From a virus, in IMG/VR virus record IMGVR_UViG_3300021389_000005, positions 1 through 64,000 of that record: a DNA stretch of 64,000 nucleotides; one strand, written 5' to 3'. Both the position numbers and the translations under genes were made by a program. The notes under the pieces were generated by a model. It was given only the letters and a program-made list of their open reading frames with translations. It had not been told where the DNA came from and searched no databases. Position 1 is the stretch's first letter, and every line of letters starts with the position of its first letter. Below, in pieces: positions 18,062-59,853 of the stretch.

Positions 18062-18064
18062 AAA

Positions 18065-18919
18065 ATGAGTGAAATTAGAAGCGGCGGTTATGCCGGTAAC
18101 GACAATAATTTAATAACACCTAGGAATTTTGGGACAAATTGCCTAAACTCTTTTTTAGAAGAAATTGCAGATGAAATTACAGGTGCATGTATGTTGCCTG
18201 TAAATTTGCCACAAAAAGAAGTTATTAACATAATTAAAAGGGCTAAGAAATGGATGTATAAGAAATATGAGGACTCTGTTAGAGAAAACTATTATCATAT
18301 TCCATTTGAGACTTTTAATTCAGAATATTTTATAGACAATAGGGTTCTTAATTTGCCTGCACCTGGCATAGATGGTGGCGGTGGAGTATTTTCAGTATAT
18401 GGTGTATATGATTTAACATCTGGTTGGAATTCAGTTGGATCTGGAATGGATCTTAGATTCCAGCCTGGTGCAGATTTTGCATTAGAAAGAATGTTATTTA
18501 GAAATATGTATAATGGATCAGGTCCTGCGGAAGCTGCAGAAGAATTACAATATTATGTATTAAATGCTTCATTAGCTGACATGTCAAGACAAATTTTAGA
18601 AAATCCTATTTCTTATCAGTATCAAAGAAACACTGGTGAATTAAAGATTATGGGTGACACGCCAAAGGGTGACGTTATATTAGAGCTTTATGAGACTATT
18701 CCAGACTGTGCGTTATACGACGATGAAATATTCTTTAGATATGTTAGTGCTAAAATAAAACAATCATTAGGCGCTAAGTTAGGTATCTTTAAATTTGCTT
18801 TACCTGGTAACGTTGAGTTTGACTATAGTGCTATAAAAGATATGGGTGACACTGAACTAGAGGCCATAGAAGAAGAAATCAAAGGAGATGAAGGTGTAGA
18901 CTTCATGTTCCATAGTTAA
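18065..18919 (+). CDS. gp13: Neck/head-completion protein (gp13-like)
   Basis: C-terminal RYVSAKIKQSLGAKLGIFKFALPGNVEFDYSAIKDMGDTEL matches the gp13-type LPG.v.hd...i....E pattern. Confidence 0.7.
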   Translation: MSEIRSGGYAGNDNNLITPRNFGTNCLNSFLEEIADEITGACMLPVNLPQKEVINIIKRAKKWMYKKYEDSVRENYYHIPFETFNSEYFIDNRVLNLPAPGIDGGGGVFSVYGVYDLTSGWNSVGSGMDLRFQPGADFALERMLFRNMYNGSGPAEAAEELQYYVLNASLADMSRQILENPISYQYQRNTGELKIMGDTPKGDVILELYETIPDCALYDDEIFFRYVSAKIKQSLGAKLGIFKFALPGNVEFDYSAIKDMGDTELEAIEEEIKGDEGVDFMFHS

Positions 18920-18940
18920 AAAATTGAGATACATATATAA

Positions 18941-19297
18941 ATGGATTTTTATATAAAAACTTTAGGAGACCCAAACTGGAATAGAACACAAGTTCAAACC
19001 AATGGAGAAATAGAACAGCTCATTCAACAAATAGAGACTATTTTATTTACCGGAAAGGCTGATGTTTTAGGATCACCTGGATTTGGATGTGATTTAGAAA
19101 ACTACATATATTCTCTAGGATATAACGAAGGTCAACTAAAAGACGTGTTAGATACACAAATTAAATATTATTGTCCTTTAGCACAAAAATACAGCGTTTC
19201 AACTAAGATTAACTTTCTTAAGGGTAGCGTTAGAGATATTGCATATATTGATATTACAGTAGACAGCAAATATCTCGTACAATTAAACATTAGATAA
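18941..19297 (+). CDS. gp25: Baseplate wedge protein gp25-like
   Basis: IETILFTGKADVLGSPGFGCDL; directly upstream of the gp6-like gene. Confidence 0.8.
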   Translation: MDFYIKTLGDPNWNRTQVQTNGEIEQLIQQIETILFTGKADVLGSPGFGCDLENYIYSLGYNEGQLKDVLDTQIKYYCPLAQKYSVSTKINFLKGSVRDIAYIDITVDSKYLVQLNIR

Positions 19298-33500: not shown

Positions 33501-36500
33501 TAAGGTTAAAGGATTCGATACAAATGGAATTAAGATATCTGCTACTAACGCGGTTGATCTAGGTTTTGGAAGTGAGAATGAAATTTATTCATATGCAGAA
33601 TCTGGATGCCAAGCATGTAAAGATGACGTTGCACCATTAGCGACATACACTTTACCGTTTATTGACGGTGATGTTATTGAAGCATTAGGTCCTAACTTTA
33701 ATCTAGAAACTAATTATAAATTAGATAATGTTTCTAGACCTCTTTTAAGAACAAATCCTAAACTTACAACAAATATTAAATTAGTAGTAAATGAAAGCGA
33801 TAATCTATATTTAGAAAGTATAAACGCAACTAAAGAATTGGCATCAATCGAGTATAAAAAGTTTCCAATTAATAAAGATGGAAAATATTCATATGACGTT
33901 GCTAATTTTTATAATGTAAACATGACTCCCAATAAGATCATGTTCCAAACTAAAAGAGATTATTCTGATATTACCGTTTTAGATAGTTATGAAAAACAAA
34001 TTGAGGAATCATATCAATATGGTGCTAATTACAACTTCTCTAAAGCACATGAAGAAGACTTTAGAATTTTTGCTCCAATTTGGTTAGATACACATATACC
34101 TAGAAATTTTGTTATCTACAGAGTTAACGATCCTGTGGGTTCTTTGGATCTAAAGGACAACGCTGCTGATAATTTTAGAAGAATACAAAATCTTCTTCAA
34201 AATGCAGAGATTATTAAATCATTTGATTTAACTAGAAATTCTAACATTGGTACGTATTTAAGAAACCACGTCCAAGATGAAACTTTCCCTAAATCTCCGA
34301 TTACTGTTAATTTTGAAAAGAAAGAAAAATCTAGTTTTAACGGTATAGATCTTATTAAAGGTGGATTTACTAGCAAGGGTGAATACTTATATAAAGATTA
34401 CATCTTAACTGATAAACCTTTAATAGAGGCTAATGATTATATCACAGATGCCTTTAGAAGAAATGAAATCGCATCAGCAAATCTAATTAATTTAGAATTT
34501 TTATTTAATGATAACCTAGCAGAAGACTATAGTGTAAATAGATATTTCGGATTATTCGTAGACGAAATAGATTCTGGATATGGTAGAATATTTTCAATAG
34601 ACGGTAAAATTCATCAGTTTAAAGAATTAAATTCTTTAGTGGATCCATCATTACCAGAAACAGCAATACCATCACATAAGCAAGTTACTACTATGCCAAT
34701 GTTGGCATATGCAAGCGCAGGTAATAGATTTTTCAATATTTCTAGCAACACAGTATATGATGATAGTGAATGGAAAGTTGCAATAGAAGATGGTGATAAT
34801 TACATATCTAGTCAATTAGGCATAAAACAAACTGGCAGGTCAATTGATCTGGTTGAAAACAATGATCATGGCTACGACTTCATTAAGCTAAATGTAGTAA
34901 ATACGCCGTACACTAACGATTCACTAGGGATCACTAATATCAAAGAGGAAGCTAATAAATTTACGTTTATTAAGCACGTCGAAGGTGAAGTAATTGTATT
35001 TGCTATTGATAATCCTTTAGATATAAATACACCTAAAACATTTTCAATAACAACATCTGCAGAAATGCCAGATACCGTTAAAACTATTTTTAATAAAGTA
35101 ACTGCAGGTACGGATTTAGATGGGCAACCTCTTAATGCTGGAACCGGAGTTGGTGAACTAGAAGATTCTGAATTATTTAGAGATATTTTTGATATAACGT
35201 TTGATAGCGTAAACCTAACGGGTGTTAAAAGTTTCTTTTTTACAGAAAAAATAGCAAATTTAGGTGATTTAAATCTAAGAATAATTTCACAGGGAGATTG
35301 TATTATTAGAAACGACGAAATCCAAACTAATTTAAATCTACAAAATAGCATATACAGGGCAGAATCACAATTAGAATCAAAAAGATTCGAAGGATATAGA
35401 TACTCCAATCAAGGTACATCTACCGATATAGCAGTAGCATTGGCAGCATGTATTGATAGTAACGAAACTAGGTTTTCAGCATATAATGTCGGATCTTCGG
35501 TTTATATTGTAAGCGCTGTTTCAGGTTATGAATTAATGCAATCTTGTTTACTATTAGGAAAGGGTAATGTTAATGAATTCTTAAGTATAGATAATGCTGA
35601 CACATTTAATAGATTACAATTAAGAGAATCTATAGACCTATTACCTGGTCATGCTATTCTAGAAAATTATGATTCTTATTTCTTATCTGGAGGAAATGCA
35701 CCTGGAAAATCAGTATTTGTAAATAATGAAACACTCAGCGAAATAAGCGCTAATGATTATATAGAAACAGAATATAAGGGCGTTTATAACAAGGTGATTG
35801 ATGTGGTAGAAGATATTACTAGAACCGACAGTGAATATTCTAAAATAATATTAGAAAACAAAAACGACTTAAAAGACGGTGACAGTAAAGTTTATTACGA
35901 AAACGAGGTTAGACTTGGTTTATTTTCTGCATACAACATATATGACTTAAACGTTGATTTTTATGACACTTCTAATTCTGATATAAAAGAGTTAGCGTAT
36001 GAAACTCAATCTGAAATAGATTATGAGCCTTACACGAATGCCATAAACAATGTAGATCCTACTACTGGAATTGAAACCACAATATTAGGAGCTAGAGATA
36101 TTTTTAGCGAGGATTTTGAATTAAACCCTATTGATTATTTTTCTAATCTATCTAAGATACTGACTGAAGAATCAGTTGATGATGAAGACGATGTTCAAAT
36201 AACTTCAGAATATGATAGACTTAAGGAAAATAACCTAAAACAATATGCTATTAATTCTAGAATAGTACCAAATATTAATAAATGGGTACTTAAAGATACA
36301 GTTACTGTAAGAGAGCAGCCATATTATTTAAATGTTAACGAAGCTTTTGGTAGAACTAATTTTTCTCCAGATTTAACTGTATCTGAAAGAAATAGAGAAT
36401 CAATGACACATGAGTGGTTTTACATTGAAAAACCACCAAAATATTTAAAGTATAACGAAATCAACGATACTTTTAGTTATGTTAATTTTATAGAGGGGTT

Positions 36501-38721
36501 TGATTTAAGCGCCAACTTATTTAGAAGCACAACTAATGATTATTTTAATGCATTTATGGTAAGTGATGGTTTTGAAAAAACACTTACTGAAGAAGATTTA
36601 GTAGATATTTACGATGATATTTTAGAAGGTGATCCTGAAATAAATTCAATAGGAGGTTCAATTACTTCGTTTATTAAAACCAATATACTAAAAAAATATT
36701 CATTAATAAGCGGTGGTAATAATATGTCACATGCTAGTACTATATTTAAAGGAATTAAAGTTGATTTTAAAAATAGAAAAGAATTTTTAAATCCAATTGC
36801 AACAGAAGTTGTGAAGAGTAGCGAATTTAATGGTTATAAATTTAGCGTATTGCTTAAAGTAAACGAAGACGCTAGTACGAATAGTATATCGTATGAAGTA
36901 ATTCAAAATAAAAAGTTTAAATTCGTTATAATGTACATTACATTGAATTTAGGTGATTATTGGATTGACAACAATATGAATAGAAAACTTCTTTATGAAT
37001 TAAATCACAAAATAGTGTTTGATTCTGACCAAGAAGATTTTACATACGCAGATACTAAATTTAACGGTGCATTACAATTTAATGACCCTTCTATTAACTG
37101 GTCAGACGAAGGACCTTACACAATTCCTGGTATATCGCACACAAATGGATCTTTACCAAAATTTGATTCTCAAATAACACTGGGCGATGATGGTCTATAC
37201 GGAGAGATTCTTTTAGATTTATTTCCGAATGACGATACTAATTCTATCTATAAAGTTTCAGTAACTGCAGTAGATTCAGATAATTCATTAAAAATATCTG
37301 GTAAGCCTGTCAATATATCTGATAGTACTGATATTTTAAATGTTGAATTCTTACCTAATTCTATCCAAAGAGGTGCAGAATACACATATGTCGGTGGTGG
37401 AGCCAACGCACATAAAGTTATTTTAGAAAAGCTAACGGCAAAATCAGTTGCAGATTTAGTTAACCTAAACAACGACGAGATTGTATACACTACTGTTGAT
37501 GTTGATGGAACAGTACATAACAATAGATTTGTTATAAACTTTAGTGATGGAACAGAAGTAATACAAAGGTCTGAGCTTAATATAGAAGAAGATACTGATA
37601 AGCCTAAAAGTTTTAAATTATTTAAAGGTAATATAGGTTATAATTTAATGTCAGAATCTGAATACTATCCATTTTTAATTAGACATAATGGAAACTACAC
37701 GGTAGACATGAAGCCTGTCGTTACATTTACAGATCCATATTCTCACTTTAAAGTTAATAGGTTGCATTTAACAAATAATGCAAATGAACTTAAATTTGAG
37801 GAATTACTATATAAACACTCTTTAACAAACTTAAGTGAATTTAATAGAGCAGATGCATATTATAGAAGATATAACAGGTGTGGTGTTATGTTTAACTTAG
37901 GTTTTATTAGTGATGATGGAACTCATGATTCAAATTGGGGATTAATTCAAAATCATTTCTATCATAAAGTAAATGAAATTAATCCGAGCGGTGTAACTAA
38001 ACTTTCAACAACGAGTGATAAGTTGCCACTATACCCACTTATTGGAGAGATTGCTATTGATAAAAAAGACATTAATGTATTTAGATCCTCTTGGGATTCT
38101 GAATATTATACTAGGTCATTAGCCGGTGGAAATTCTACCAATATACCTGGTACATTTGATACACATGAAGAAAGATCTTATTTAGCATCAACTATTATGA
38201 AGCCTAAATATTCATATGAACTTCTTGATTTTAATACATCTTATGTTAATTCTGAAGAAGAATTGGACGAAATTCTGATAAACAGTGCTAATACAAGTGA
38301 CGTTGTAGTATTCGAAAATATAAATTACATAATAGCAGATTTTTATGTGGCTGATATTTTAATTACTAAACTAGCAAAAGAAGGTGTACTAGAAAGTATT
38401 TCACAATACGTTACTCCATCTAATTCGGCTGGAAATAAAGAAACGTTAACGGACGATGCATTAATGTATGCTGAAAATAATTTAATAGAAACATATATTT
38501 TAGATTCTATTAGATTGTACACTAAACAATTTAAAGGTAAAGGTTCTAAGATTATAAATGCGGTAACTATTGATCAATTAGACAGTGACGGATTTACTCT
38601 TGATAAGAATAATTTTGCATATAGAAGTCATGTGCAAAAGCCAATGAATTTTAGGTTGATATATAATAAAAGATTAGGCTACTCTTATGATATAAAACCT
38701 ATGATAAAAATAAAGTCATAA
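30574..38721 (+). CDS. Giant virion protein: N-terminal Ig/cadherin-like and Cys-containing modules plus a long C-terminal structural region
   Basis: 2715 aa; EGTESLVFIL, NTAPVF...ATDAEG...QPTKG...YIPN...D cadherin/Big-like motifs; SPTPSP linker. Confidence 0.65.
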   Translation: MAAQSFKLFQGSADQTSACGFDRNVDPTLDIEVWYDDTNSVTPASPYDITTLPSGSQLYTNDTLAANSMLDANHLGGSGLPVGGDNWWTLRDNNNFGQIKIESTSGETSDVYTNCTLEYKIAEFRDDNGAPISTVLEGESIELYIEAIGDLDGVTVAYDLDSSSDADYDDLENLNQGGDITFSSVDGDLFRWSAVLPVEIDTDAIGEGTESLVFILGDSSNQDDAGNDIGIPTVSIDITDVSPTPSPVPSSTPSPTPLPEFECSDANLDLTALSGLPAGTQIDTTLITISAGTVASIAPTTIQSGSAQYAITVTVPSSGFNNSGSTISCDESITGDSAPTANDLIISLDSEESEDINIWNLVSDDITSDGDLTITLGALNPALTGSSLTGLNASGITTYQAPLVEFSQGNKTQTFTYTAEDVAGNTSTGTVTINISAEANTAPVFQGTPYSITTQLNQTTAEIISYSATDAEGHVITYAISVQPTKGVATLDTANSTVSYIPNGGETGPDSIILTATDSQGSPTDTNITIAIQFPAYFEILATSFFNNEDDACLDPATVAVWFSTQNATQISDLAVGDKIYNDANGNGVYASGFCKIQQGSLEKVVQIGSDGAILSIDNCDAQSNLFQSTRVRYSGSETNLCNDLGGEVVDIFYGISNPSDPSQDIATLVANNTPLFVSSYRANQYANGFNNDLEGLIPAGLYQGLTEPVFYFKRGGDDSWITVNPNDYQFKCPDPIVYDTFSLGLLSYDTSVDDLCNSNTDSIEIFYRLPQVDGFSQSAATLLEIAQGNIPIFTSERAATENLIDGLAPSGVYSIDTDEYFVWNNEGDGFEYNWYGFNSQNQFVKDSQITRPGNCSQYVRPDMSNNVGVTTGDGGLNDTNVYYAFYSCAANTDQENILGTVSQYWNLYVVDAGFDMTLTDEGNSVEVGESPLKGFLESLNLAPNESVTIKPNGFDCLTYVHTVWSETISDAINVLKVKGFDTNGIKISATNAVDLGFGSENEIYSYAESGCQACKDDVAPLATYTLPFIDGDVIEALGPNFNLETNYKLDNVSRPLLRTNPKLTTNIKLVVNESDNLYLESINATKELASIEYKKFPINKDGKYSYDVANFYNVNMTPNKIMFQTKRDYSDITVLDSYEKQIEESYQYGANYNFSKAHEEDFRIFAPIWLDTHIPRNFVIYRVNDPVGSLDLKDNAADNFRRIQNLLQNAEIIKSFDLTRNSNIGTYLRNHVQDETFPKSPITVNFEKKEKSSFNGIDLIKGGFTSKGEYLYKDYILTDKPLIEANDYITDAFRRNEIASANLINLEFLFNDNLAEDYSVNRYFGLFVDEIDSGYGRIFSIDGKIHQFKELNSLVDPSLPETAIPSHKQVTTMPMLAYASAGNRFFNISSNTVYDDSEWKVAIEDGDNYISSQLGIKQTGRSIDLVENNDHGYDFIKLNVVNTPYTNDSLGITNIKEEANKFTFIKHVEGEVIVFAIDNPLDINTPKTFSITTSAEMPDTVKTIFNKVTAGTDLDGQPLNAGTGVGELEDSELFRDIFDITFDSVNLTGVKSFFFTEKIANLGDLNLRIISQGDCIIRNDEIQTNLNLQNSIYRAESQLESKRFEGYRYSNQGTSTDIAVALAACIDSNETRFSAYNVGSSVYIVSAVSGYELMQSCLLLGKGNVNEFLSIDNADTFNRLQLRESIDLLPGHAILENYDSYFLSGGNAPGKSVFVNNETLSEISANDYIETEYKGVYNKVIDVVEDITRTDSEYSKIILENKNDLKDGDSKVYYENEVRLGLFSAYNIYDLNVDFYDTSNSDIKELAYETQSEIDYEPYTNAINNVDPTTGIETTILGARDIFSEDFELNPIDYFSNLSKILTEESVDDEDDVQITSEYDRLKENNLKQYAINSRIVPNINKWVLKDTVTVREQPYYLNVNEAFGRTNFSPDLTVSERNRESMTHEWFYIEKPPKYLKYNEINDTFSYVNFIEGFDLSANLFRSTTNDYFNAFMVSDGFEKTLTEEDLVDIYDDILEGDPEINSIGGSITSFIKTNILKKYSLISGGNNMSHASTIFKGIKVDFKNRKEFLNPIATEVVKSSEFNGYKFSVLLKVNEDASTNSISYEVIQNKKFKFVIMYITLNLGDYWIDNNMNRKLLYELNHKIVFDSDQEDFTYADTKFNGALQFNDPSINWSDEGPYTIPGISHTNGSLPKFDSQITLGDDGLYGEILLDLFPNDDTNSIYKVSVTAVDSDNSLKISGKPVNISDSTDILNVEFLPNSIQRGAEYTYVGGGANAHKVILEKLTAKSVADLVNLNNDEIVYTTVDVDGTVHNNRFVINFSDGTEVIQRSELNIEEDTDKPKSFKLFKGNIGYNLMSESEYYPFLIRHNGNYTVDMKPVVTFTDPYSHFKVNRLHLTNNANELKFEELLYKHSLTNLSEFNRADAYYRRYNRCGVMFNLGFISDDGTHDSNWGLIQNHFYHKVNEINPSGVTKLSTTSDKLPLYPLIGEIAIDKKDINVFRSSWDSEYYTRSLAGGNSTNIPGTFDTHEERSYLASTIMKPKYSYELLDFNTSYVNSEEELDEILINSANTSDVVVFENINYIIADFYVADILITKLAKEGVLESISQYVTPSNSAGNKETLTDDALMYAENNLIETYILDSIRLYTKQFKGKGSKIINAVTIDQLDSDGFTLDKNNFAYRSHVQKPMNFRLIYNKRLGYSYDIKPMIKIKS

Positions 38722-50884: not shown

Positions 50885-52705
50885 ATGGAAAAACTAAAAT
50901 CATTTGAGCAGTTTGCTAAGATAAAAACTGAAAGCGATCAAGCTCAACTACAAGAAGAACAAAATGCAAAAAGAGAATCTGAAGCTAATACGTTTAAGGA
51001 TCTCTTATCAGAATTTAATGTTACATCTGTAAAAGAATTATCAGAAGAACAAAAAAACGAATTCTTTACTAAATTAAGAGGTGTTGAAATGAACGAAGCA
51101 TTCTTAATCATAGAAGGAACTAGAGGACAATTTGGTAAAATAGACAAAAGAGGTAACATAGAGTCTGTGTATACACATTATGATTCATATCCTGACAACA
51201 TGCTACCGCTTATTAAGAAAACATATTTAAAGGGTGGTTCACCACTAAACATGGTTCTTAAAAATGGAGATAATTCAGGTTTAGAAGCTGATCCAAGTGG
51301 AATGAACTACTATGGAGACACTGATAATATGAAAGGTAACGTTAAAAACATTGACAGATATATTTCAACTGCAGGTGATAAAGGTGGAGCTGAATTCATT
51401 TACCTTTTTGATGAAAAATCAGGAAAGTGGTTAATGGCAGACATATATGCAGGTGATAAAGATTTAAAACCAGCATTTGAATCTGTAGAAATTAATGAAG
51501 CTATTAAAGTAGAAGGTAAGAGAGATGCTAAGAAAGTAGTAACTCAATATAATCAAATTTTGTTTTCTAAATTAAATGCAATTGGTGCATCTAACGATAA
51601 GAAGACTTTATTGGGTGCAATTAAAAAATTATTCTTAGATTCAATGGAAGATGCTAATTTCCATAGAGAAAGAGAAAAGTGTGCAGGCGCTATCAAAGGT
51701 AATATAGGATCTATTCCTGTAATAGTTGATGGTTTAGGCAAAATGTCAGTAAACATCGGATCGACAAGAATTAAAGATGCATTAGAACAAGAATATTCTA
51801 GAATTTCAAATGCAGCTGGATGGTCAGGTCAAGGTATTGCAGAAGGAACTGCATTGTTCTTAGAGCAATGTGGCTTTGCTAAAATGGGACAAGATTTACT
51901 AGATAGATTTAACTCTTTCTTTGAAGGTGAAGTAAAAGACAACTTTGAATTTAGAATGTTCGAATCTATCAAATATGCAGAGGCTGTATTAGAGGCATCA
52001 GTGGTAATGGATGCAATGGATCCTGGATCTAAAGTATTAAGAAAATTACTTAAGAAGCATAAAGTAACAATGGAAATCATTGATAACGATGGACCATCTG
52101 GATGGCCAGAAGTTGAATTAACAGGAGACAGGAAAGATCTTGAAAAGGTACTAGCATCTGAAGATGGTTGGGACGATGCAGGTTTAGCAGAATACATTGA
52201 AGAATCTAACGGAACTTATACAGCTAAAGTTAAATCTTTAAATGAAGCTAAAAAGGACTTAAAGGTTGGAGATACTGGTATCGACTATAACGACAATATT
52301 GTAGAAGTTATAGAAATTGGTAAATTTGACAAAGTAGCAAAAAGCTTTAAAAAGGAAATGAAAGCAGATGCTGAAGATTATGGATATGAAAAAGCAGCAG
52401 GTGATTTCTATCTTACTAAAAATATTGAAGCAGCTGAAGGTAATGTTGGAGATTTAGCTATTTACCCGGTAAAATACGACATGTCTCAATATTGGGGAAT
52501 AAATCCTTTAAAAGAATCAGTAGTTACTGAAGCGGAAGTTACTTCCGATGAAGAATTTAAAGAATATGCATTTTCTGTATTACAAAAAGCTTTCGGCGAC
52601 GACTTTGACGAAGCTAAAGCACAGGAAGTAGTTGATGGATTAATTTCTAAAAACTCAGGAGATTACGGTGCTATGGTTGGTGCTTTAAAATCATCACTTG
52701 GGTAA
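50885..52705 (+). CDS. Multi-module putative internal head polyprotein
   Basis: MEKLKSFEQF start; repeated MNEA/IIEG/INEA/VLEA/LNEA/VTEA sites between modules. Confidence 0.6.
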   Translation: MEKLKSFEQFAKIKTESDQAQLQEEQNAKRESEANTFKDLLSEFNVTSVKELSEEQKNEFFTKLRGVEMNEAFLIIEGTRGQFGKIDKRGNIESVYTHYDSYPDNMLPLIKKTYLKGGSPLNMVLKNGDNSGLEADPSGMNYYGDTDNMKGNVKNIDRYISTAGDKGGAEFIYLFDEKSGKWLMADIYAGDKDLKPAFESVEINEAIKVEGKRDAKKVVTQYNQILFSKLNAIGASNDKKTLLGAIKKLFLDSMEDANFHREREKCAGAIKGNIGSIPVIVDGLGKMSVNIGSTRIKDALEQEYSRISNAAGWSGQGIAEGTALFLEQCGFAKMGQDLLDRFNSFFEGEVKDNFEFRMFESIKYAEAVLEASVVMDAMDPGSKVLRKLLKKHKVTMEIIDNDGPSGWPEVELTGDRKDLEKVLASEDGWDDAGLAEYIEESNGTYTAKVKSLNEAKKDLKVGDTGIDYNDNIVEVIEIGKFDKVAKSFKKEMKADAEDYGYEKAAGDFYLTKNIEAAEGNVGDLAIYPVKYDMSQYWGINPLKESVVTEAEVTSDEEFKEYAFSVLQKAFGDDFDEAKAQEVVDGLISKNSGDYGAMVGALKSSLG

Positions 52706-52716
52706 AAACAATATAT

Positions 52717-52745
52717 AAACTAGAGAGCATAACACTCTCTAGTTT
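52717..52745 (+). terminator. Intergenic hairpin, possible terminator or RNA-stabilising stem
   Basis: AAACTAGAGAG-7nt-CTCTCTAGTTT perfect 11-bp stem immediately after AATATATA (52710). Confidence 0.55.
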
Positions 52746-52760
52746 TTACTTTCAACTATT

Positions 52761-54032
52761 ATGAAAATATATACAGACTTTAGTACATTTATAACCGAAA
52801 GGGTTCACTTACAAGAATCTAATTTAATATTAGAAGGTGGAGCAGCCGGCCACATGTCACACCCGTTTGATAACAAGTCATTGACATTCGGCGATTTTAA
52901 AAAGCTTATAGAATCTGGATTAAGTGGAGAACTTAATTTTGAAGAAGACCCTACCGAAAAAACAGATGGTCAAAATTTATTTGCAACTGTTAAAGATGGA
53001 GAAACAATGTTTGCCAGAAATAAGGGTCAAATGAAAAATCCAATAGACCTAAACGGTATTATTAAGATGTTTACTGGTCACGCTTCTAAATTAGTAGAAG
53101 AAACATATATTTTTGCAGCAAAAGATTTAGCTGACGCTTTACCAAAACTTAAGGATCAATCAATGTTTGCAAACGGATTAAATTTCGTTAACATGGAATT
53201 GATCTACTCTAAAAACCCTAACGTGATATATTATGATAGAGATGTCATTCAATTTCACAATATAGTAGAGACAGACGGAGAAGGTAATCAAACAGGAACT
53301 CAAAACTTAGCAACAGAATTAGTAGGTGCTTTAAAAGAATTAAAGAAAGATGTTCAAAACACATTTACTATAATTCCACCACAAGTATTAAAGATTGCTA
53401 AAGACGTTGACTTTGAAGCAAACAAGTCAAAATTCATTAAACAAGTAGAAGCATTAAAGAATCGTTATAAACTAACAGATGCTGACGAAGTTTCCAGATA
53501 TCACGAAATGTGGTGGAGAGAAACGATAGACACAAATTTCCCTGATCTAGAACAAAACCACAAAGAAGGTTTATTATTAAGATGGGCATATGGTGATAAG
53601 AAGACTTTAAATTTAAGATCATTAGACAAAGCTATCGGTAAAGATAAAGCTGCACTAATTAAGAAGTTTGATAAAGAAGATGTTAAAAAGAAGTATAAAG
53701 AAAACATTAGACCATTTGAAGATCTATTCTTAGAATTAGGATCAGTAATTTTGAAAAACGCAAGTAACTTTGTAGCTGCATCGCCAGACAAAGAAATGCA
53801 AAGACTGCATAATCAAATTAGAACTGAAGCTGCTAAGATTAAAAAATCAGGTGGAATTGATCAAATTAAAAAAGTAGAAGCTGAGCTTGCTAGACTAGAA
53901 AGAATCGGTGGAATAGAGTCTATTATACCAACTGAAGGTTTAGTTTTTAAATACAAAGGACATACTTACAAATTAACAGGCACTTTTGCCGCAATCAATC
54001 AATTGATGGGAATCATCAAATACGGCAGATAA
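52761..54032 (+). CDS. ATP-dependent ligase/nucleotidyltransferase-fold protein (DUF6267-like) with capsid-targeting-like N-terminus
   Basis: Motif I EKTDG, III NMELI, IIIa IQFH, IV EGLVFK, V YKL; LEGGAAGHMSHPF after a Glu site. Confidence 0.65.
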   Translation: MKIYTDFSTFITERVHLQESNLILEGGAAGHMSHPFDNKSLTFGDFKKLIESGLSGELNFEEDPTEKTDGQNLFATVKDGETMFARNKGQMKNPIDLNGIIKMFTGHASKLVEETYIFAAKDLADALPKLKDQSMFANGLNFVNMELIYSKNPNVIYYDRDVIQFHNIVETDGEGNQTGTQNLATELVGALKELKKDVQNTFTIIPPQVLKIAKDVDFEANKSKFIKQVEALKNRYKLTDADEVSRYHEMWWRETIDTNFPDLEQNHKEGLLLRWAYGDKKTLNLRSLDKAIGKDKAALIKKFDKEDVKKKYKENIRPFEDLFLELGSVILKNASNFVAASPDKEMQRLHNQIRTEAAKIKKSGGIDQIKKVEAELARLERIGGIESIIPTEGLVFKYKGHTYKLTGTFAAINQLMGIIKYGR

Positions 54033-54044
54033 AACAAAAATAAT

Positions 54045-55889
54045 ATGGCACTACAAAACCTAAAAACATATTTTGAATCTACTAATATCAATGACTTTAA
54101 TGAGTTATTGAGTAACATATGTGTTGTAACAGAAAAAGTGCAAGCATCAAGTTTTCACGTAAGAAGAGAAGAGGTTGGTAAATTTGAATTTTTTAAGAGT
54201 GGTTCAAAAATTGCAATGAATCGCGTAGATAGAACTCTCGTTAAATATTATGAAAATGCCATTAAACATTTTAACACTATTTCAGACGAAGCGTTAAATG
54301 AAATGCCAAAAGATTGGAAATTTGGATTTGATTACATGGTAGATAAGAAAACTATCGACATAGAATATGACTTATTACCAAAAAACAATTTAATACTAAC
54401 ACATATACAGGTACTTAACGCAACAGATCCTACGAGAGTTAAGAGAGTTATTAGAGATCCTAGAATTCTTGAGAAGTGGGCAACTAAACTAGAAGTACAA
54501 GAAATATCAGTTTTATTTGAAGGTCAATTAGCATTGAATCAAAAAGAAGATCTAATAGACTTATTGTCTTTAGGTGAATCAGAATTTAAAACTAAATTTG
54601 AGAAGGAATCATTTACAAGGTTAATATACAATATATTCGATAACGGTAGAAATAAATCAGCATTAAATCTAGATTTAGATAAAGATATTGATGCATTGGT
54701 AGTAAACTTCTACGAGAATAGAAATCCTAAGAGTTTTAAACTAGAAAGATTTGATAGAATTGAATCAGAGCCTAGAAAACCATCTGACATGTATCAAATA
54801 TCTATATTAGATTTAGTTGAATTTTTAACAAGTTTTGATATATCAGATATAGAATTAAAAGAAGAGGACGCAGATCTTAGATATGTAGAATTAATGTCAT
54901 CTATATTTAATGCTTACGTAGAAAAGCACGCAACTAAATATGTAGGCGCAGATTTTGATTCAGCAGATTTTGCAGAAGGTGAAAACTTTGAACTTAATAC
55001 AGCATATATCTCTAATGAGAAAACCCTCTCACTAGTACAAAACAAAGTGTTATCGGAACTTTTTAAAATAGCACTCGGTTCTTTTAGAAAAAAGAGAAGC
55101 AAAGAAACTGATATTATAAATTCAGATCTTATGTCTCAGATTAATGAAATAGTTGAAGAGATAGAAACTATCATAATGGGTAAAACAAACGAAAAAGATG
55201 TAATGGATTTTAAAAAATATCTAATTAATCAAAAACTAAATGGCGACGTAAGTCCAATAATGGAAGGATTAACTGTAGACTATCCAGATCAGGGTAAAAA
55301 GCTAGTTAATATGTTTGTTGGTAGATTTCAGCCGTTCACATTAGGACATGCTAAGGTAATAGACACTATTAGCAAACAAAACGGACATCCTGTTGTTGTA
55401 ATATTGATTAAATCAAAGACTAAGAAAAAAGAAGATGCTTTTAAAAGACCTTATGATGAGGAAACTCAATTAGCAATGCTTAATAAATTAAAGTCTAAAT
55501 ACCCAATAGAAAAAGTATACATTTTAGATAGAGCGGCAATAGATTATATGTTTAACGCAATGAGAGCCGATGGTTACGAACCGGTACTTTGGGGAACAGG
55601 AACAGATAGGCTCAAAACATATTCGTATCAAGTTGATAAACCAGAATATAGAGAATCTTTAAATTGTAGAGAAGATTTCGGTTTATTTGAAATCCCTAGA
55701 TCTGGTAAAAACATTTCAGCAACACAAGTTAGAAATGCAATGTTAGACGGTGATGAAAAGACATTTAAAAAATTAACACCTAGACCAATTCATGGTATGT
55801 ATACTGAATTGAGAACAAAATTAGAGGTTTCTATGGGTGTTGCAGAGTCAAAATTCATGACATTTGAACAGTTTGTGAAGAAAGACTAA
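54045..55889 (+). CDS. Degenerate ligase-like domain fused to a HIGH-family (cytidylyl/adenylyl) nucleotidyltransferase
   Basis: N-terminal TEKVQAS (degenerate motif I); C-terminal GRFQPFTLGH, GTDR, ISATQVRNAM. Confidence 0.7.
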   Translation: MALQNLKTYFESTNINDFNELLSNICVVTEKVQASSFHVRREEVGKFEFFKSGSKIAMNRVDRTLVKYYENAIKHFNTISDEALNEMPKDWKFGFDYMVDKKTIDIEYDLLPKNNLILTHIQVLNATDPTRVKRVIRDPRILEKWATKLEVQEISVLFEGQLALNQKEDLIDLLSLGESEFKTKFEKESFTRLIYNIFDNGRNKSALNLDLDKDIDALVVNFYENRNPKSFKLERFDRIESEPRKPSDMYQISILDLVEFLTSFDISDIELKEEDADLRYVELMSSIFNAYVEKHATKYVGADFDSADFAEGENFELNTAYISNEKTLSLVQNKVLSELFKIALGSFRKKRSKETDIINSDLMSQINEIVEEIETIIMGKTNEKDVMDFKKYLINQKLNGDVSPIMEGLTVDYPDQGKKLVNMFVGRFQPFTLGHAKVIDTISKQNGHPVVVILIKSKTKKKEDAFKRPYDEETQLAMLNKLKSKYPIEKVYILDRAAIDYMFNAMRADGYEPVLWGTGTDRLKTYSYQVDKPEYRESLNCREDFGLFEIPRSGKNISATQVRNAMLDGDEKTFKKLTPRPIHGMYTELRTKLEVSMGVAESKFMTFEQFVKKD

Positions 55890-55926
55890 TATATAGTATA
55901 AGAATATAAAATATAGAAAATTAAAA

Positions 55927-57447
55927 ATGAAAAAATTCGAAGAATTTATCGGTGAAGGTAAAATTACTCTAAAGAGAAAATATACTGAAAACCATCCAGC
56001 ACAAACTGCAGGAACCCACGCAAAAATTAGAAACAAAGTATTAGAAGCTATTGCTGACGGTACATTAACTCAAGAAGAATTTGATGCTATTTTAAAAGAA
56101 ATGTCAAACGATTCAGGAAGATGGATGAGAAGAAACGCAAAATACTTTAGTGTTTCTGAGGCAGGTGTTTCTCTTTCTAAGTTCGGACAAAGAGTATTAA
56201 CAACAATCAACATTTCTGAAGAAGTTGCAGAAGACGAAGTTGAAGAAGGAAATGCATTTGGAGATGCAGTAACTAAAGCTAAAGAAAACGGAGATAAAGA
56301 ATTCGAATTTGATGGTAAAACCTACCCAGTAAAAGAAGGTAGAGGATTTGTTGCGGCTGCTAAAAAAGCAAAAGACGCAGGTGAAAAAGAATTTGAATTT
56401 AATGGTAAAAAATATCCAGTACTTCTTAAAGAAGGTACTGATTTTGTCTATGAATCTTTTACTTCTTTTTTAGAAAACCTAAACGAGGCTTTCGGTTCAA
56501 TAAAACTATCTAAGTTATTCACAAGCACAAGAGGTAAAGTTGACAAATCTTTATCAGGCGCATTTTATGGTAAAACTAAAGTTGCTTTAGATAAAGTACA
56601 GGATGAAGATCTTATTGATACTGATCCAATGACAGCGTACAAGGCAAAACAAACAAACACTATTGTTTTTTATATCTCAGATACTGAGAAAGAAAATCCA
56701 CATGCACCATACGATACATATCAATCTAATAAACTCATTCCAGGTGGAGGTTATTTATTAGCGGTAGCAAGTGGAGGTAATGAATTTTACACTAACTCAT
56801 GGTCTAGCAGATACTCTGATAATAGGAACAGAACTTTATCAAAGTCTCCTAACAACTCAAGCGATACTATTGGTATTTCTAAGAAGTATAAAGGATGGGA
56901 CGCTACTGGACTTTACAATGTAAAGAGAATTGCAGAAGTTGCAGATAGAGCAGTTGTAATTAATATTGATTTATTACAACAAAAGTATTCTACAGCCAAC
57001 AAAAGAGATGAAAGATCAGCAGCAAAAGCAGGAGCGATTGCATTCAAATCTGATAAAGACTTCAAACAAGAAAACAAAAACAGATACACTCAAATTTTAG
57101 CTACTAAAGCAGCTGCATTACCATTAGATAAAATGGTATCAAGCGCAATTGATGAATTAGCTAAACAAATTCAAGACGGTTTAAAAGCTGGAGAGAAAAC
57201 TGAATACGGAGAAATCTATATCGGTAAAAACAAAAGAGGTTCTACTGTAAAATTAAAAGATGCTTCTTCACACATGTCATCTATTTTAGATGATTACTCA
57301 AGATACTGTGATTATATCGCAAGATCTGAAGAGTCTGAAAAGAAATACGGCACAGGTGAAAGATGGTACGAAAGAGAAGCTAAGACATATGCTAAATCTA
57401 TTAAAGATAGAATTAACAAAATCAAAACTTTTGATTACGCTTGGTAA
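55927..57447 (+). CDS. Putative internal head polyprotein with tandem ~31-aa repeats
   Basis: MKKFEEFIGE start; two EG..F..A..KAK..G.KEFEF.GK.YPV repeats; AATATATA at 55888. Confidence 0.65.
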   Translation: MKKFEEFIGEGKITLKRKYTENHPAQTAGTHAKIRNKVLEAIADGTLTQEEFDAILKEMSNDSGRWMRRNAKYFSVSEAGVSLSKFGQRVLTTINISEEVAEDEVEEGNAFGDAVTKAKENGDKEFEFDGKTYPVKEGRGFVAAAKKAKDAGEKEFEFNGKKYPVLLKEGTDFVYESFTSFLENLNEAFGSIKLSKLFTSTRGKVDKSLSGAFYGKTKVALDKVQDEDLIDTDPMTAYKAKQTNTIVFYISDTEKENPHAPYDTYQSNKLIPGGGYLLAVASGGNEFYTNSWSSRYSDNRNRTLSKSPNNSSDTIGISKKYKGWDATGLYNVKRIAEVADRAVVINIDLLQQKYSTANKRDERSAAKAGAIAFKSDKDFKQENKNRYTQILATKAAALPLDKMVSSAIDELAKQIQDGLKAGEKTEYGEIYIGKNKRGSTVKLKDASSHMSSILDDYSRYCDYIARSEESEKKYGTGERWYEREAKTYAKSIKDRINKIKTFDYAW

Positions 57448-57997
57448 ATAAACAATAAAAACAATTATGAAACATTTACAATTATTTGAAGAATTTCTAA
57501 ACGAAGCAACATTAAAAGAAGGAAGAGACGAAGCATTAGCTAATGCTATTCTTGCATACTTTTATGCAGTTGAAGGAACACCAGAAGGTGACGCTGTAAG
57601 AGCATTACCTGGAAATCCAATTAGATCTGATGAACCAGTAGGTGAACAAGGTGGTTTAGGCGGATGGGGAAAAGATGTTGTAAAAGATCTATCAGGTGCT
57701 AGAAGATGTCCTTCTGACTTCATGATGGGTAATGTTATATCAATAGCAGCAAACAACGGTAACTCATACTACTTTGATGGTGGTGAATTCGTAGAAGGTG
57801 ATAAAACTATTATTAAAGGAACTAATAAAATGAAATACAGAGAATTTATCGGCGAACTTATTAAGTTAAAGATAATCGAAACTCCAAAGTATTAATACTG
57901 ACAAATTCACTTGATTACGCTTGGTAATTAATAAATTTATACAAATAAAAATATAAAAATGAAACATTTACAATTATTTGAAGAATTTCTAAACGAA
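57431..57997 (+). repeat. Composite direct repeat flanking a gene cassette
   Basis: TTGATTACGCTTGGTAA at 57431-57447 and 57911-57927; identical 39-nt gene starts at 57467-57505 and 57959-57997. Confidence 0.9.
57467..57895 (+). CDS. Putative internal head protein
   Basis: MKHLQLFEEFLNE start, 142 aa. Confidence 0.65.
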   Translation: MKHLQLFEEFLNEATLKEGRDEALANAILAYFYAVEGTPEGDAVRALPGNPIRSDEPVGEQGGLGGWGKDVVKDLSGARRCPSDFMMGNVISIAANNGNSYYFDGGEFVEGDKTIIKGTNKMKYREFIGELIKLKIIETPKY

Positions 57998-58498
57998 AAG
58001 GCATATAGAATGACAGGTATCTATGCAGCTAAAGGCCTAGTAGGTAGAATAATGCAAGCGTTTAAACAAGAGATCAAAACGGTAAAATACGAAGGTATTA
58101 ATGTAGTAACCCAAGAAGAAGTTAATAAAGAATGGGCTAAGTTTGAAGATACTGCTAAGAAAATGATTTTAGATCAAGTAGAAAAAGGAGCAGGTGGTAT
58201 GGAAGGTGTTCTATATGTTACCGCTAATCTTTTTAATGGATTCGCTATAGATGAGGTTACTGGTTTAAATTCTGAAGAATCAGAGACGTTATACCTTGGT
58301 TATGAAGTTGTAATTAATGTAGGTTTCATGGACGATTTTAATGGCAAAAAGGTTTATAAGAAAATCGATAAAACTGGAATGATGAATTCCCCGTTAGCAG
58401 GTAAGAGGGATCTTATTTATGGTGAATATGATGCATCAGTTGGTAATAACAATCTTGAAATTAGAGAATCTGAATACATTCAGATTGACGGAAAATAA
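57959..58498 (+). CDS. Putative internal head protein
   Basis: MKHLQLFEEFLNE start, 179 aa, body unrelated to 57467. Confidence 0.65.
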   Translation: MKHLQLFEEFLNEKAYRMTGIYAAKGLVGRIMQAFKQEIKTVKYEGINVVTQEEVNKEWAKFEDTAKKMILDQVEKGAGGMEGVLYVTANLFNGFAIDEVTGLNSEESETLYLGYEVVINVGFMDDFNGKKVYKKIDKTGMMNSPLAGKRDLIYGEYDASVGNNNLEIRESEYIQIDGK

Positions 58499-58507
58499 TA
58501 TTATAAA

Positions 58508-59779
58508 ATGGCAAAGATATTTTACGTAAGAGAAAGATCTGGAGATTATGCTCAGGTTAATTTTTTTAAAACAGAAAAAGAAGCATTAAACTACGGTATA
58601 TCTGAATGGCCAGACTTCGATATGTTCGGTGACGAAGAAGACGAAGACGATTCATATGACATGGATAATGATACATGGTGGGTTGGAGACTCAATAGACT
58701 TTAAGAAAGGTATTTTATTTTCGTTTGAAGAAGGACAGGTTTATGTTCAAGGAATGGACGATGCCGCTGCAAGAGAATATGTTAAAGAAGAAGTTGGAGA
58801 ATATGGCGCTGCTATGTTCTTTGCTAGTTTCAAAAAAGGAATGTACGGTTACTTAGGTAATGGTGCAGATGGAAGAGGTTTCAAATGGGAATGGGACGGC
58901 ATAGACTTAAATGAAAGTTCTAAATCTTTGTCTAGTAACAAATCTAATATAACACACAGTAGATCTTTTAATGCTTTTATTAATGAAAAGCATGTTGCGC
59001 CTAAAGAATATGACAATACTAAAAATTGGGAAAAAGAAGGTTCTAGATATCGTTATATTCCATTTGCGGAGTTTAAATCAAGACAAGCTGCAAAACCTGA
59101 TTTTAAAACAGGTAAAATGGAAGATATTGAAGTTGAACAGTGGTTTACAAGTATAGCTGGACAATGTGATGGTAGACTTCAAGCTAAAATATTAAAGGGG
59201 TTCGATAAACACGGAAAAGATTTCAAACAATCTGGTGATAATATGGAAACATATAAAAGCTGGATCGTTGCAGCAATGGTAAGATGTGGGTTTATGGTAG
59301 AAGGAGAAATTCAAGAAGATTTAATAGAAAATATTACACCTTCTAATATGTCAGGTATGGGACCAACTGCTTTACCAACAAGTGGAGCTGATGGTTCTGG
59401 AGATGTACCTGCTGGACAAGGCGATGCTGAAGAAGAATTTAAGAAAAGAAAAAAAGAAAGAGAAGCAATGCTAAAAAACGAATCACACATAAAAAGTTTT
59501 GAAGCTTTTTCATTTGATTTTGAAGGCGTAGATATTAAAAATCCATTTACAGATGAGACTGCAAGAATGGATGTAGATCCAAAACAGTATTATGGAAAGG
59601 AATACGCTAAGTCAGATATTAAGAAGATCATTGACGCAAGCGAAGAGTTTATTAGTAAATACAATGAATGGAAGGAATATCAACCATTAGACTCAGATGA
59701 AGATATGCATGCTGATTATGGAGAATTTGTTAAAGCATCTCTAGAAAAACTAAATGTATTAGTTAAGAAATTAGGATAA
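58508..59779 (+). CDS. Multi-module putative head protein
   Basis: Internal SFNAFINE and HIKSFEAF targeting-like motifs; LNES/LIEN sites. Confidence 0.55.
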   Translation: MAKIFYVRERSGDYAQVNFFKTEKEALNYGISEWPDFDMFGDEEDEDDSYDMDNDTWWVGDSIDFKKGILFSFEEGQVYVQGMDDAAAREYVKEEVGEYGAAMFFASFKKGMYGYLGNGADGRGFKWEWDGIDLNESSKSLSSNKSNITHSRSFNAFINEKHVAPKEYDNTKNWEKEGSRYRYIPFAEFKSRQAAKPDFKTGKMEDIEVEQWFTSIAGQCDGRLQAKILKGFDKHGKDFKQSGDNMETYKSWIVAAMVRCGFMVEGEIQEDLIENITPSNMSGMGPTALPTSGADGSGDVPAGQGDAEEEFKKRKKEREAMLKNESHIKSFEAFSFDFEGVDIKNPFTDETARMDVDPKQYYGKEYAKSDIKKIIDASEEFISKYNEWKEYQPLDSDEDMHADYGEFVKASLEKLNVLVKKLG

Positions 59780-59807: not shown

Positions 59808-59834
59808 AGAGCCCACTAGATGTGGGCTTTTTTT
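59808..59834 (+). terminator. Intrinsic terminator ending the late array
   Basis: AGAGCCCAC-TAGAT-GTGGGCTTT followed by a T run. Confidence 0.85.
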
Positions 59835-59853
59835 ATGAAAAAAAGTGAGCCAG

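Follow-up and report, generated by a model that had tools for sequence, protein, structure and literature searches.

An RNA-ligase-like gene linked to an NMNAT-like gene in an uncultured marine T4-like phage: a possible head-delivered RNA-repair kit

What might a phage do with two adjoining genes, one with the motifs of an RNA ligase and the other joining a decayed ligase-like module to an NMNAT-like adenylyltransferase domain? The pair lies in a stretch of 64,000 nucleotides, here called the window, which is part (positions 1 to 64,000) of the IMG/VR virus record IMGVR_UViG_3300021389_000005. This record (G000) has 126,361 bases and an estimated completeness of 43%, and its source is an uncultured marine T4-like myovirus. 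Gene 1 and gene 2 are on the + strand, 12 nt apart (Table 1). An earlier note on this DNA had delimited both reading frames and quoted their motifs, and all of these are confirmed at the exact positions. The reading favoured here, which we give about an even chance of being right, is that the two genes constitute a co-inherited kit for the repair of RNA breaks, probably delivered in the phage head. Its activities and packaging are predicted from folds, motif conservation and decay, domain architectures, linkage and tag conservation, all of which are observed. The new elements are a ligase family that has no name, its habitual tie to an NMNAT-like enzyme, and the presence of capsid-targeting-like tags on repair enzymes.

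Does gene 1 encode a ligase? Motifs I, Ia, III, IV and V occur in canonical order (EKTDG, R86, E146, EGLVFK and K404), where the naming of R86, E146, E392-G393 and K404 as motifs Ia, III, IV and V follows general consensus patterns. The full covalent nucleotidyltransferase set read there by the earlier note (KTDG, E, F, EGLVFK, K) is present, and K67, D69, G70, R86, E146, E392, G393 and K404 are invariant in 39/39 aligned relatives, down to 34% identity. Structure prediction, with Rnl1 and Rnl2 among the comparisons, finds the expected ligase fold, and ligases are ranked top both by Foldseek and by VIA, a structure aligner independent of Foldseek. The AlphaFold2 model, built on the 39-sequence alignment, has a predicted local distance difference test (pLDDT) score of 89.4 and a predicted template modelling score of 0.84, with residues 16-29 below pLDDT 50. 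With VIA, the top eleven matches are all ligases (Z 9.4-7.0), and nine of these, ranks 1-8 included, are RNA ligases. Prominent among them are NgrRnl (5cot; Z 9.4, root-mean-square deviation (rmsd) 3.8 Å, 184 aligned residues), REL1 (1xdn; 8.4, 4.3 Å, 192), Trl1 (9r3w; 8.4, 4.4 Å, 192), a tRNA ligase (6n0t; 8.0, 4.6 Å, 188), T4 Rnl2 (1s68; 7.9, 4.7 Å, 183) and T4 Rnl1 (9do4; 7.5, 3.7 Å, 169). These ligase alignments are spread over residues 27-423, with just 169-192 residues aligned. Foldseek places T4 Rnl1 first (E 1.8e-3, probability 0.95), and its top 12 are all ligases. On the basis of the model and motifs, we confidently predict a covalent nucleotidyltransferase with an ATP-dependent RNA-ligase fold.

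The family to which gene 1 belongs, here L1, is large. At E <= 0.001 it comprises 1867 representative clusters (50% identity, metagenomes), and 506 at E <= 1e-30. For gene 1 itself, searches of Pfam (E <= 0.1), PHROGs, NCBIfam and PDB sequences (phmmer) gave nothing. The family is absent from Pfam, PHROGs and NCBIfam, and one characterised member would annotate thousands of proteins. Weak eS6 rows that the family profile gave against PDB sequences were rejected as noise (E 0.09 or worse). The known enzymes nearest in kind are T4 Rnl1, which works with Pnkp in the repair of tRNA anticodon loops, and the ligase domain of fungal and plant Trl1; gene 1 likewise combines the ATP-dependent RNA-ligase fold with a full complement of motifs I-V. 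However, it shows no detectable sequence similarity to them, and its helical region is between motifs IIIa and IV, not after V. It also has an extra N-terminal motif, GGxxGHMxHPFD, nearly invariant in the 39-sequence alignment (G26, G27, G30, H31, H34), and a propeptide resembling the T4 capsid-targeting sequence (CTS). Membership in the Rnl1/Trl1-LIG clade was not found, in that the PF09511 model is not matched and the clade's helical domain C-terminal to motif V is absent.

Is RNA the substrate? Motif V is followed in the AlphaFold2 model by a single helix (residues 409-421), without an OB domain or motif VI. DNA ligases do figure among the fold matches (African swine fever virus ligase Z 7.0, T4 DNA ligase 6.1, T7 5.4), and covalent nucleotidyltransferase motifs are common to DNA ligases, RNA ligases and capping enzymes alike. 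Gene 1 might on these grounds act on DNA, by nick sealing or end joining, or as an RNA capping-type enzyme, which we regard as highly improbable. RNA ligases hold the best eight places with VIA, nothing like an OB domain or motif VI follows motif V, and the fusion partners of relatives are RNA-end enzymes; moreover, the phage has its own OB-domain DNA ligase, which makes RNA the better reading of the gene 1 substrate.

The fusion partners are best seen in the longer relatives. In most of the 150 representatives listed, the gene 1 module forms the C-terminal ~405 residues of a protein of 500-1900 amino acids (aa). A Pfam run on 40 long relatives out of the 150, a non-random set picked for length and variety, gave PF01467 (HIGH) in 14, a Zeta/AAA_33 P-loop kinase in 6, DUF5661 in 4 and a CCA-type PolyA_pol head in 4 (HD also in 2 of them); 19 had no Pfam match, and a single 2H phosphoesterase match (1/40) scored 25.4 bits, below the cut-off of 27. 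Custom hidden Markov models of the modules found the order HIGH-L1 in 45 of the 150, L1-HIGH in 1 and L1 only in 104. Examples are a 639-aa protein of Microcystis phage Mel-JY01, with HIGH then L1, and a 915-aa protein of huge phage LR756508, where a ParB-like N-terminus precedes HIGH and L1. A kinase, a cyclic-phosphate esterase, a CCA-adding enzyme, an HD domain and a ligase make up the classical set of tools with which broken tRNA is healed and sealed. As far as sequence can tell, then, the partner domains point to RNA repair specifically, rather than to the protein nucleotidylylation that the earlier note had offered as one role and that these RNA-end enzymes do not favour. Healing and sealing components are covered in parts of phage surveys (PMC7824862 among them). 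As Trl1 does, relatives of gene 1 carry a P-loop kinase and a 2H-type esterase in one chain with the ligase. They also recall the polyvalent proteins of phages and conjugative elements, as they string enzymatic domains together over 500-1900 aa, one with a ParB-like N-terminus; the pair under study differs from polyvalent proteins in that its modules are distributed over two genes and form a set coherent in its concern with RNA ends, not an unrelated anti-defence mixture.

How does gene 2 relate to these enzymes? Its model (pLDDT 85.3) has two modules joined by disordered residues 382-407, with pLDDT < 50 at 397-407. The first module, here L2n, is matched by Foldseek with T4 Rnl2 (2hvr; E 3.4e-8 over 373 columns, the helical C-domain included) and by VIA with 1s68 (Z 9.6, rmsd 3.9, 189 aa), 2hvq (9.4), Trl1 (9.1), NgrRnl (8.8) and REL1 (8.5). 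It has thus the nucleotidyltransferase plus C-terminal helical-domain fold of T4 Rnl2 and REL1 (PF09414), but its motifs have decayed and it is fused to HIGH or to unidentified C-terminal regions. No PF09414 match was found for gene 2 itself in the Pfam search, and two distant relatives come just short of the 27-bit cut-off, P0498 with 26.2 bits and P0506 with 26.1. The strings in question are EKVQAS (residues 30-35), FGFDY (93-97), DALVV (216-220), KSFKL (229-233) and, in the linker, SPIME/G (403-408; the slash marks a putative cleavage site). Of 38 diverse L2n members, 27 have K at the motif I lysine position, 8 have N, 2 have Q and 1 has M, so that the lysine is lost in 11/38; at the glycine position 23 members have G and the other 15 have A, and the motif III position is variable (Q, D, E, R, L or K). 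In gene 2 the lysine is kept and DG has become QA (EKVQAS), and the huge-phage homolog has ENLDGS. The Rnl2/REL1 catalytic signature, motif I Lys-x-x-Gly with the motif III acid, is therefore not conserved in the L2n family. The module would then no longer need its own catalytic lysine, and it probably binds RNA ends or nucleotide without self-adenylylation.

The earlier note had taken the gene 2 N-terminus for a degenerate copy of gene 1. A degenerate ligase-like module it is, but not a copy: BLASTP finds no similarity between the two (best E 3.6), and the paralog idea was rejected. L1 and L2n share a polypeptide in 0/270 sampled proteins and are two different ligase lineages, L2n Rnl2-like and L1 without a name. 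L2n is always N-terminal, followed by HIGH in 36/120 relatives and by unidentified regions in 84/120, and complete forms of 425-426 aa without HIGH exist. Did fusion with HIGH cause the loss of the lysine? In raw counts from one clade, the lysine is missing in 20/36 HIGH-fused modules and in 3/83 without HIGH. The tree has 4 changes in lysine state and 6 in HIGH state, and an independent-pairs sign test gives p = 1; this tree-based control leaves the association not established, and the causal idea was rejected.

A more radical proposal is that the pair amounts to a capsid-delivered RNA ligase that is split and independent of the lysine, gene 1 remaining a conventional ligase for other ends. 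An RNA 5'-phosphate would take the place of NMN in the NMNAT chemistry of the HIGH domain, so that AppRNA would be made directly from ATP, and the Rnl2-derived module, its lysine dispensable, would do the final sealing step only. Rnl2 lysine mutants still seal pre-adenylylated substrates. We consider this quite a long shot, but if true it would explain the welding of HIGH to a ligase in many uncultured phages, the motif I decay, and why each module has its own head-targeting tag.

What, then, does the second module of gene 2 contribute? The earlier note saw an intact HIGH-family domain there, and a check against NMNAT structures agrees. Both motifs are present, GRFQPFTLGH at residues 426-435 (T432-L-G-H435) and ISATQVR at 557-563. 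Pfam CTP_transf_like (PF01467) is passed over residues 423-563 (E 1e-8, 35.9 bits against a cut-off of 21), and the fold is nearest NMNAT, with VIA giving archaeal NMNAT 1f9a (Z 15.2, rmsd 2.5, 155/164 residues) and NadM 2qjt (14.4) and 2qjo (14.0). A profile of alignment A3 matched PDB sequences with the HIGH domain only, and in NCBIfam this domain passes only the generic TIGR00125 domain model. Archaeal NMNAT MJ0541 (1f9a) and the NMNAT-Nudix protein NadM (2qjo/2qjt) have the same fold and the patterns GRFQPF(T/H)xGH and ISxTxxR; gene 2 differs from NadM and from NARP2/NARP3 in that its HIGH domain is joined to ligase-like modules and has no partner of the Nudix, kinase or transporter kind. 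NARP3 is reported to consist of a PnuC-like transporter and a NadR-like enzyme.

Could the HIGH domain be a plain NMNAT, rebuilding NAD+ against NAD-depleting defences in the manner of NARP2/NARP3, with the ligase modules as uncoupled anti-defence co-cargo in the manner of a polyvalent protein or cargo polyprotein? Its best fold and sequence matches are indeed NMNATs, and phage NAD+ reconstitution is established (PMC7824862). The multi-domain architectures of relatives are highly variable, the ParB-like N-terminus in LR756508 included, which suits loosely assembled cargo; yet the recurrent partners are kinase, CCA, HD and 2H domains, not Nudix, NAMPT or PnuC, and HIGH is tied to one or other ligase module in 82/270 sampled proteins (custom module models). 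Each of five related records has exactly one PF01467 domain, that of gene 2, and one of the five has NAMPT. A single HIGH domain per record fits an NMNAT role where NAMPT is present but proves nothing, and NAMPT is absent from the other four, incomplete, records. The NMNAT equivalog cut-offs are missed by a factor of at least 4. We judge a plain NMNAT with uncoupled ligases to be unlikely.

Are the two genes inherited together? There are 158 confirmed gene 2 relatives in IMG/VR, and linkage was counted in the best 80. A gene 1 homolog is upstream of gene 2 in 80/80 loci, adjoining in 76, separated from it by an insert of 670 nt in 2 and, in the last 2, in a rearranged or split arrangement, so the co-conservation on which the idea of a two-gene system depended is upheld. 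The 80 loci belong to one phage clade (50-97% identity), and the count thus shows stability, not many independent events. Independent support is found in huge phage LR756500, which has the same gene order at 31-34% identity. In one locus (L016, 8783-11945) the first pair is followed after ~1 kb by a second complete one, made up of an L1 paralog (66% identity) and, one base later, an L2n-HIGH paralog, which indicates that the pair was duplicated as a unit. The split loci, L073 (4666-8744) and L076, carry an L1-like gene (31% identity), a free 199-aa HIGH, a 294-aa open reading frame (ORF) of unknown nature and a free 426-aa L2n; the three modules can therefore exist as separate, still-linked genes. 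A complex prediction that combined residues 1-600 of gene 2 with residues 30-423 of gene 1 scored 0.02 against a mark of 0.32 and gives no verdict either way. A search of 185,579 species genomes, with patterns reaching close relatives only, gave one locus, L088 (PAUJ01000002.1, 1-945; 74% identity). It is on a 19-kb contig binned with a Flavobacteriaceae metagenome-assembled genome; this contig probably belongs to a phage, and as a pointer to the host it is weak at best.

Where would such proteins act? In T4, internal head proteins carry the CTS, MKTYQEFIAE (PMC8442874). A review (PMC9026906) describes cleavage by gp21 after the Glu of L/I-x-E, internal-protein propeptides of 10-19 residues, the importance of CTS residues 4 and 7 for targeting and 8 and 10 for processing, and a C-terminal propeptide in Alt as well. 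The gene 1 N-terminus agrees with this rule in positions 4 and 7, the L/I-x-E site and the propeptide length. The pattern [FY]xxF[ILVM]xE within the first 18 residues is kept in 114/117 gene 1 orthologs, and FxEF-like N-terminal peptides occur also in several stand-alone relatives of ~40% identity. Gene 1 shares with T4 IPI-IPIII and Alt an aromatic residue at 4, F7 and L/I-x-E, and both tagged sets are diverse and fast-evolving; but where T4 loads small basic proteins and an ADP-ribosyltransferase, the candidate cargo here comprises enzymes of RNA repair and nucleotide enzymes. A second potential site precedes the L1 core, where [LI]xE/GG is found in 110/142 representatives (background ~1% per position), with E in 114, C in 14 and M in 12 at residue -1.

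Gene 2 lacks a tag at its N-terminus and has them instead within the protein and at the C-terminus. M387, F389, Y392 and L393 of the internal tag are invariant in alignment A2, and a distant clade has the equivalent FxTFxxY[IL]. The 'IME/G' string of the earlier note is present within SPIME/G, and the form SP-[IV]xE-[GA] is conserved in 110/114 clade members. The C-terminal tail pattern is kept in 108/120 homologs and persists in the 426-aa forms without HIGH. The targeting-like motifs noted on both genes are real, specific and conserved and resemble the T4 CTS, from which they differ in that tags here are also internal and C-terminal. In the record, the N-terminal pattern M..[aromatic]..F...[LI]xE occurs in 4/130 + strand ORFs, all in 52761-58498, and in 0/896 internal-Met controls; its C-terminal version is found in gene 2 only, within the 126-kb record.

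The other tagged ORFs lie directly downstream of gene 2. ORF 55927 starts with MKKFEEFIGE, 6/10 identical to the T4 CTS, F7, I8 and E10 included, and ORFs 57467 and 57959 have an identical 13-residue start, MKHLQLFEEFLNE. These three, as well as ORFs 50885-52705 and 58508-59779, have no family match; a search for annotated relatives gave nothing for ORF 55927 and, for ORF 50885, a single weak match to a hypothetical protein. From their tags and position, ORFs 55927, 57467 and 57959 are candidate internal head proteins that share the presumed transcription unit of the ligase pair. The phage that carries the tagged proteins also encodes T4-type head genes and a gp21-family protease. Outside the window, the record has the gp20 portal (Portal_T4, 85552-87150), the gp21-family prohead protease (Peptidase_S77, 87606-89921) and gp23 (Gp23, 90025-91446), so that the tags would fit T4-type head loading and trimming.

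Must the peptides be head signals? F-x-x-[FY]-hydrophobic peptides could instead dock the proteins on a cytoplasmic hub (sliding clamp, SSB or an array protein) or assemble the modules, in which case the proteins would not be virion cargo and would act late in the cell. Tags at N-termini, at C-termini and internally after L2n are unusual for the N-terminal T4 CTS, although Alt is reported with a C-terminal propeptide too (PMC9026906). The genes directly follow the replication genes gp32, primase and UvsW, but the first gene of the array has a motif common to structural genes. The L1 junction does not always have Glu at -1; against this stand the ORF 55927 match to the T4 CTS, with the important F7, I8 and E10, and the encoded gp21-family protease. 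We find cytoplasmic docking possible, if somewhat unlikely, and continue with the head-delivered kit.

When would the genes be expressed? The earlier note placed them in a late array. The record has a strand-specific motif, GATATATAA, found 17 times on the + strand and 0 on the -, with 14/17 no more than 60 nt before a start, a zone that takes in only 6.2% of positions. It stands in front of the genes for portal, sheath, tube, baseplate and fibres as well as of ORF 50885 and the CCA-type gene, and is probably the late promoter of this lineage, differing from T4's TATAAATA. The lineage's own late-type motif before structural genes and ORF 50885 supports the late array, but gene 1 has only a motif variant (cAATATATAA), and the T4 consensus is not enriched (6 matches of TATAAATA against 15.8 expected). 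Sigma-70-like sites are not enriched either (39 found, shuffle mean 54.6). The variant before gene 1, ATATATAA, overlaps the 5' arm of a terminator-like hairpin, so transcripts starting there could escape the terminator that would halt read-through from ORF 50885. Hairpins bracket six genes, and no terminator-like site was found between gene 1 and ORF 58508. From these sites, late-type expression of the gene 1 unit is plausible. Within the window, GATATATAA[AT]A sites are at 1013, 7046, 15369, 16718, 30518, 38658, 46392 and 50843, and 9 more are elsewhere in the record.

How might the kit work? The two genes are probably co-transcribed, and the target would most plausibly be tRNA cut by host anticodon nucleases. 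Gene 1 would be the working sealing enzyme: K67 would take AMP and pass it to a 5'-phosphate end, and the ends would be joined, a mechanism suggested by the fold and the invariant motifs. L2n would hold RNA ends or nucleotide, and the HIGH domain would join AMP from ATP to a 5'-phosphate acceptor, the simplest being NMN, to give NAD+. The CTS-like peptides, the L/I-x-E sites and the gp21-type protease suggest that both proteins and the three downstream ones are probably loaded into the prohead. The cargo would be trimmed, gene 2 possibly split at E407, injected with the DNA and active before phage gene expression. We infer from the evidence above the use of ATP, adenylylation of K67, an RNA (tRNA) substrate, what the HIGH domain accepts, and that the proteins are packaged and cleaved. 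A context for RNA repair is provided in the same record by a CCA-type enzyme and seven phage tRNAs.

Several findings weigh against such a kit. Neither ligase module has a sequence-level match to any characterised ligase in Pfam and PDB searches, profiles included, and the profile of the gene 1 family alignment (A1) recovered no solved ligase from PDB sequences. The fold Z scores of both ligase modules, 8-9.6, are middling by VIA's own note; the case for a ligase fold in gene 1 is made despite this because the matches are unanimous and the motif set invariant. For the HIGH domain, PPAT (Z 13.8) and NaMNAT (Z 13.6) are nearly level with NMNAT, and gene 2 misses the NMNAT equivalog cut-offs widely (TIGR01527 29.4 against 181.2, NF002243 30 against 127, NF003791 29.7 against 409), so 'NMNAT-like' is a description of kind, not a family assignment. 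Among the five related records, which are 43-76% complete, the end-healing partners AAA_33, 2H and KptA are found in 1/5, 0/5 and 0/5, NAMPT in just 1/5, and, as distinct from T4 with its Rnl1-Pnkp pair, no Pnkp or other kinase or phosphatase partner; the scan is uninformative because the records are incomplete. The tag pattern was written after these genes had been seen, which makes conservation the fairer test. The gene 2 tail site is V-A-E, not L/I-x-E, and the C or M at residue -1 of the L1 junction in 26/142 representatives suggests that this junction may be a ligand, metal or structural loop with GHMxHPFD and not only a cleavage site. Finally, if the long relatives are head-cargo polyproteins, their fusions may tell more of shared packaging than of a biochemical link.

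What is known of RNA repair in phages comes mainly from T4 Rnl1/Pnkp, Rnl2 and RtcB. The earlier note knew of no function for the pairing of a ligase with a HIGH enzyme, and this still holds: no description of an RNA ligase with an NMNAT-like partner was found in the literature searched, the main RNA-repair survey lying outside that search. Two Aravind-lab surveys (PMC7824862 among them), in the parts drawn upon, discuss RNA ligases apart from HIGH NMNATs and mention no fusion of the two. The link could connect RNA repair with the supply of NAD+ or of an adenylyl donor, and no described pathway was found that explains it. If the tags do direct these enzymes to the head, the cell would receive repair enzymes together with the phage DNA, a pre-emptive answer to abortive-infection systems that cleave tRNA. 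The T4 capsid-targeting principle would then be widely used by marine phages for enzyme delivery.

Table 1. Positions of the genes, motifs, tags and transcription signals discussed in the text (a slash marks a putative cleavage site)
Feature	Positions	Strand	Description
Gene 1	52761..54032	+	423 aa; RNA-ligase-like covalent nucleotidyltransferase, unnamed family L1
Gene 1 residues 1-13, MKIYTDFSTFITE	52761..52799	+	CTS-like propeptide; Y4, F7, I11-T-E13
Gene 1 L-I-L-E25/G-G-A-A-G-H31-M-S-H34-P-F-D	52824..52871	+	conserved junction and family-specific N-terminal motif before ligase core
Gene 1 motif I, E66-K67-T-D69-G70	52956..52970	+	K67, predicted AMP-accepting lysine
Gene 1 helical insert, residues 218-381	53412..53903	+	between motifs IIIa and IV; AlphaFold2 secondary structure
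Gene 1 motifs IV and V, E392-G-L-V-F-K ... Y-K404-L-T-G	53934..53981	+	only one helix after; no OB domain
Gene 2	54045..55889	+	614 aa; two-module protein L2n-HIGH
L2n module of gene 2	54045..55184	+	Rnl2-like nucleotidyltransferase (1-240) and helical domain (248-380); decayed EKVQAS, FGFDY, DALVV, KSFKL
Gene 2 internal tag, M387-D-F-K-K-Y-L393	55203..55223	+	directly after L2n module
Gene 2 S-P-I-M-E407/G	55251..55268	+	L/I-x-E site in disordered inter-module linker
HIGH domain of gene 2	55296..55835	+	HIGH-type adenylyltransferase, NMNAT-like; residues 418-597; T432-x-G-H435, I557-S-x-T-x-x-R563
Gene 2 C-terminal tail, VAE/SKFMTFEQFVKKD	55839..55886	+	tag 2; tail pattern in 108/120 homologs
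ORFs 55927-57447, 57467-57895, 57959-58498	55927..58498	+	CTS-tagged candidate head cargo, gene 1/gene 2 unit
ATATATAA	52711..52718	+	one-base variant of GATATATAA, 50 nt upstream of gene 1
Hairpin and T-run (terminator-like)	52717..52745	+	between ORF 50885 and gene 1; 11 pairs then TTTTTAC; upstream boundary of presumed gene 1 to ORF 58508 unit
Hairpin and T-run	59810..59835	+	after ORF 58508; downstream boundary of presumed unit; positions approximate

The surroundings of the pair are those of a T4-like genome. Every large ORF of the window is on the + strand, at a GC content of ~32%, and the genes include those for baseplate and fibres, with a gp32-like single-stranded DNA-binding protein (SSB), a primase and a UvsW-like helicase directly upstream of the gene 1/gene 2 region. 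The record further encodes the large terminase, the sheath, a separate ATP-dependent DNA ligase with OB domain and the CCA-adding-type nucleotidyltransferase. The gene for the last (G000 124400-125545) is preceded by the late-type motif and is directly 3' of a cluster of seven tRNA genes (123688-124359; Leu-UAA, Arg-UCU, Asp-GUC, Glu-UUC, Gln-UUG, Ile-UAU, Lys-UUU); the equivalents of cluster and gene in a related locus, L087, are at 17327-17998 and 18039-19181. A sigma-70-like factor with regions 2 and 4 is encoded at G000 122967-123581 of this T4-like genome. The family B DNA polymerase is apparently split, into 67459-68862 and 73475-74683, ~4.6 kb apart with ribonucleotide reductase genes between. 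In the tail-fibre region of the window, 30574-38721 is one ORF of 2715 aa, the sole PHROG match of which (function unknown) covers residues 1048-1335.

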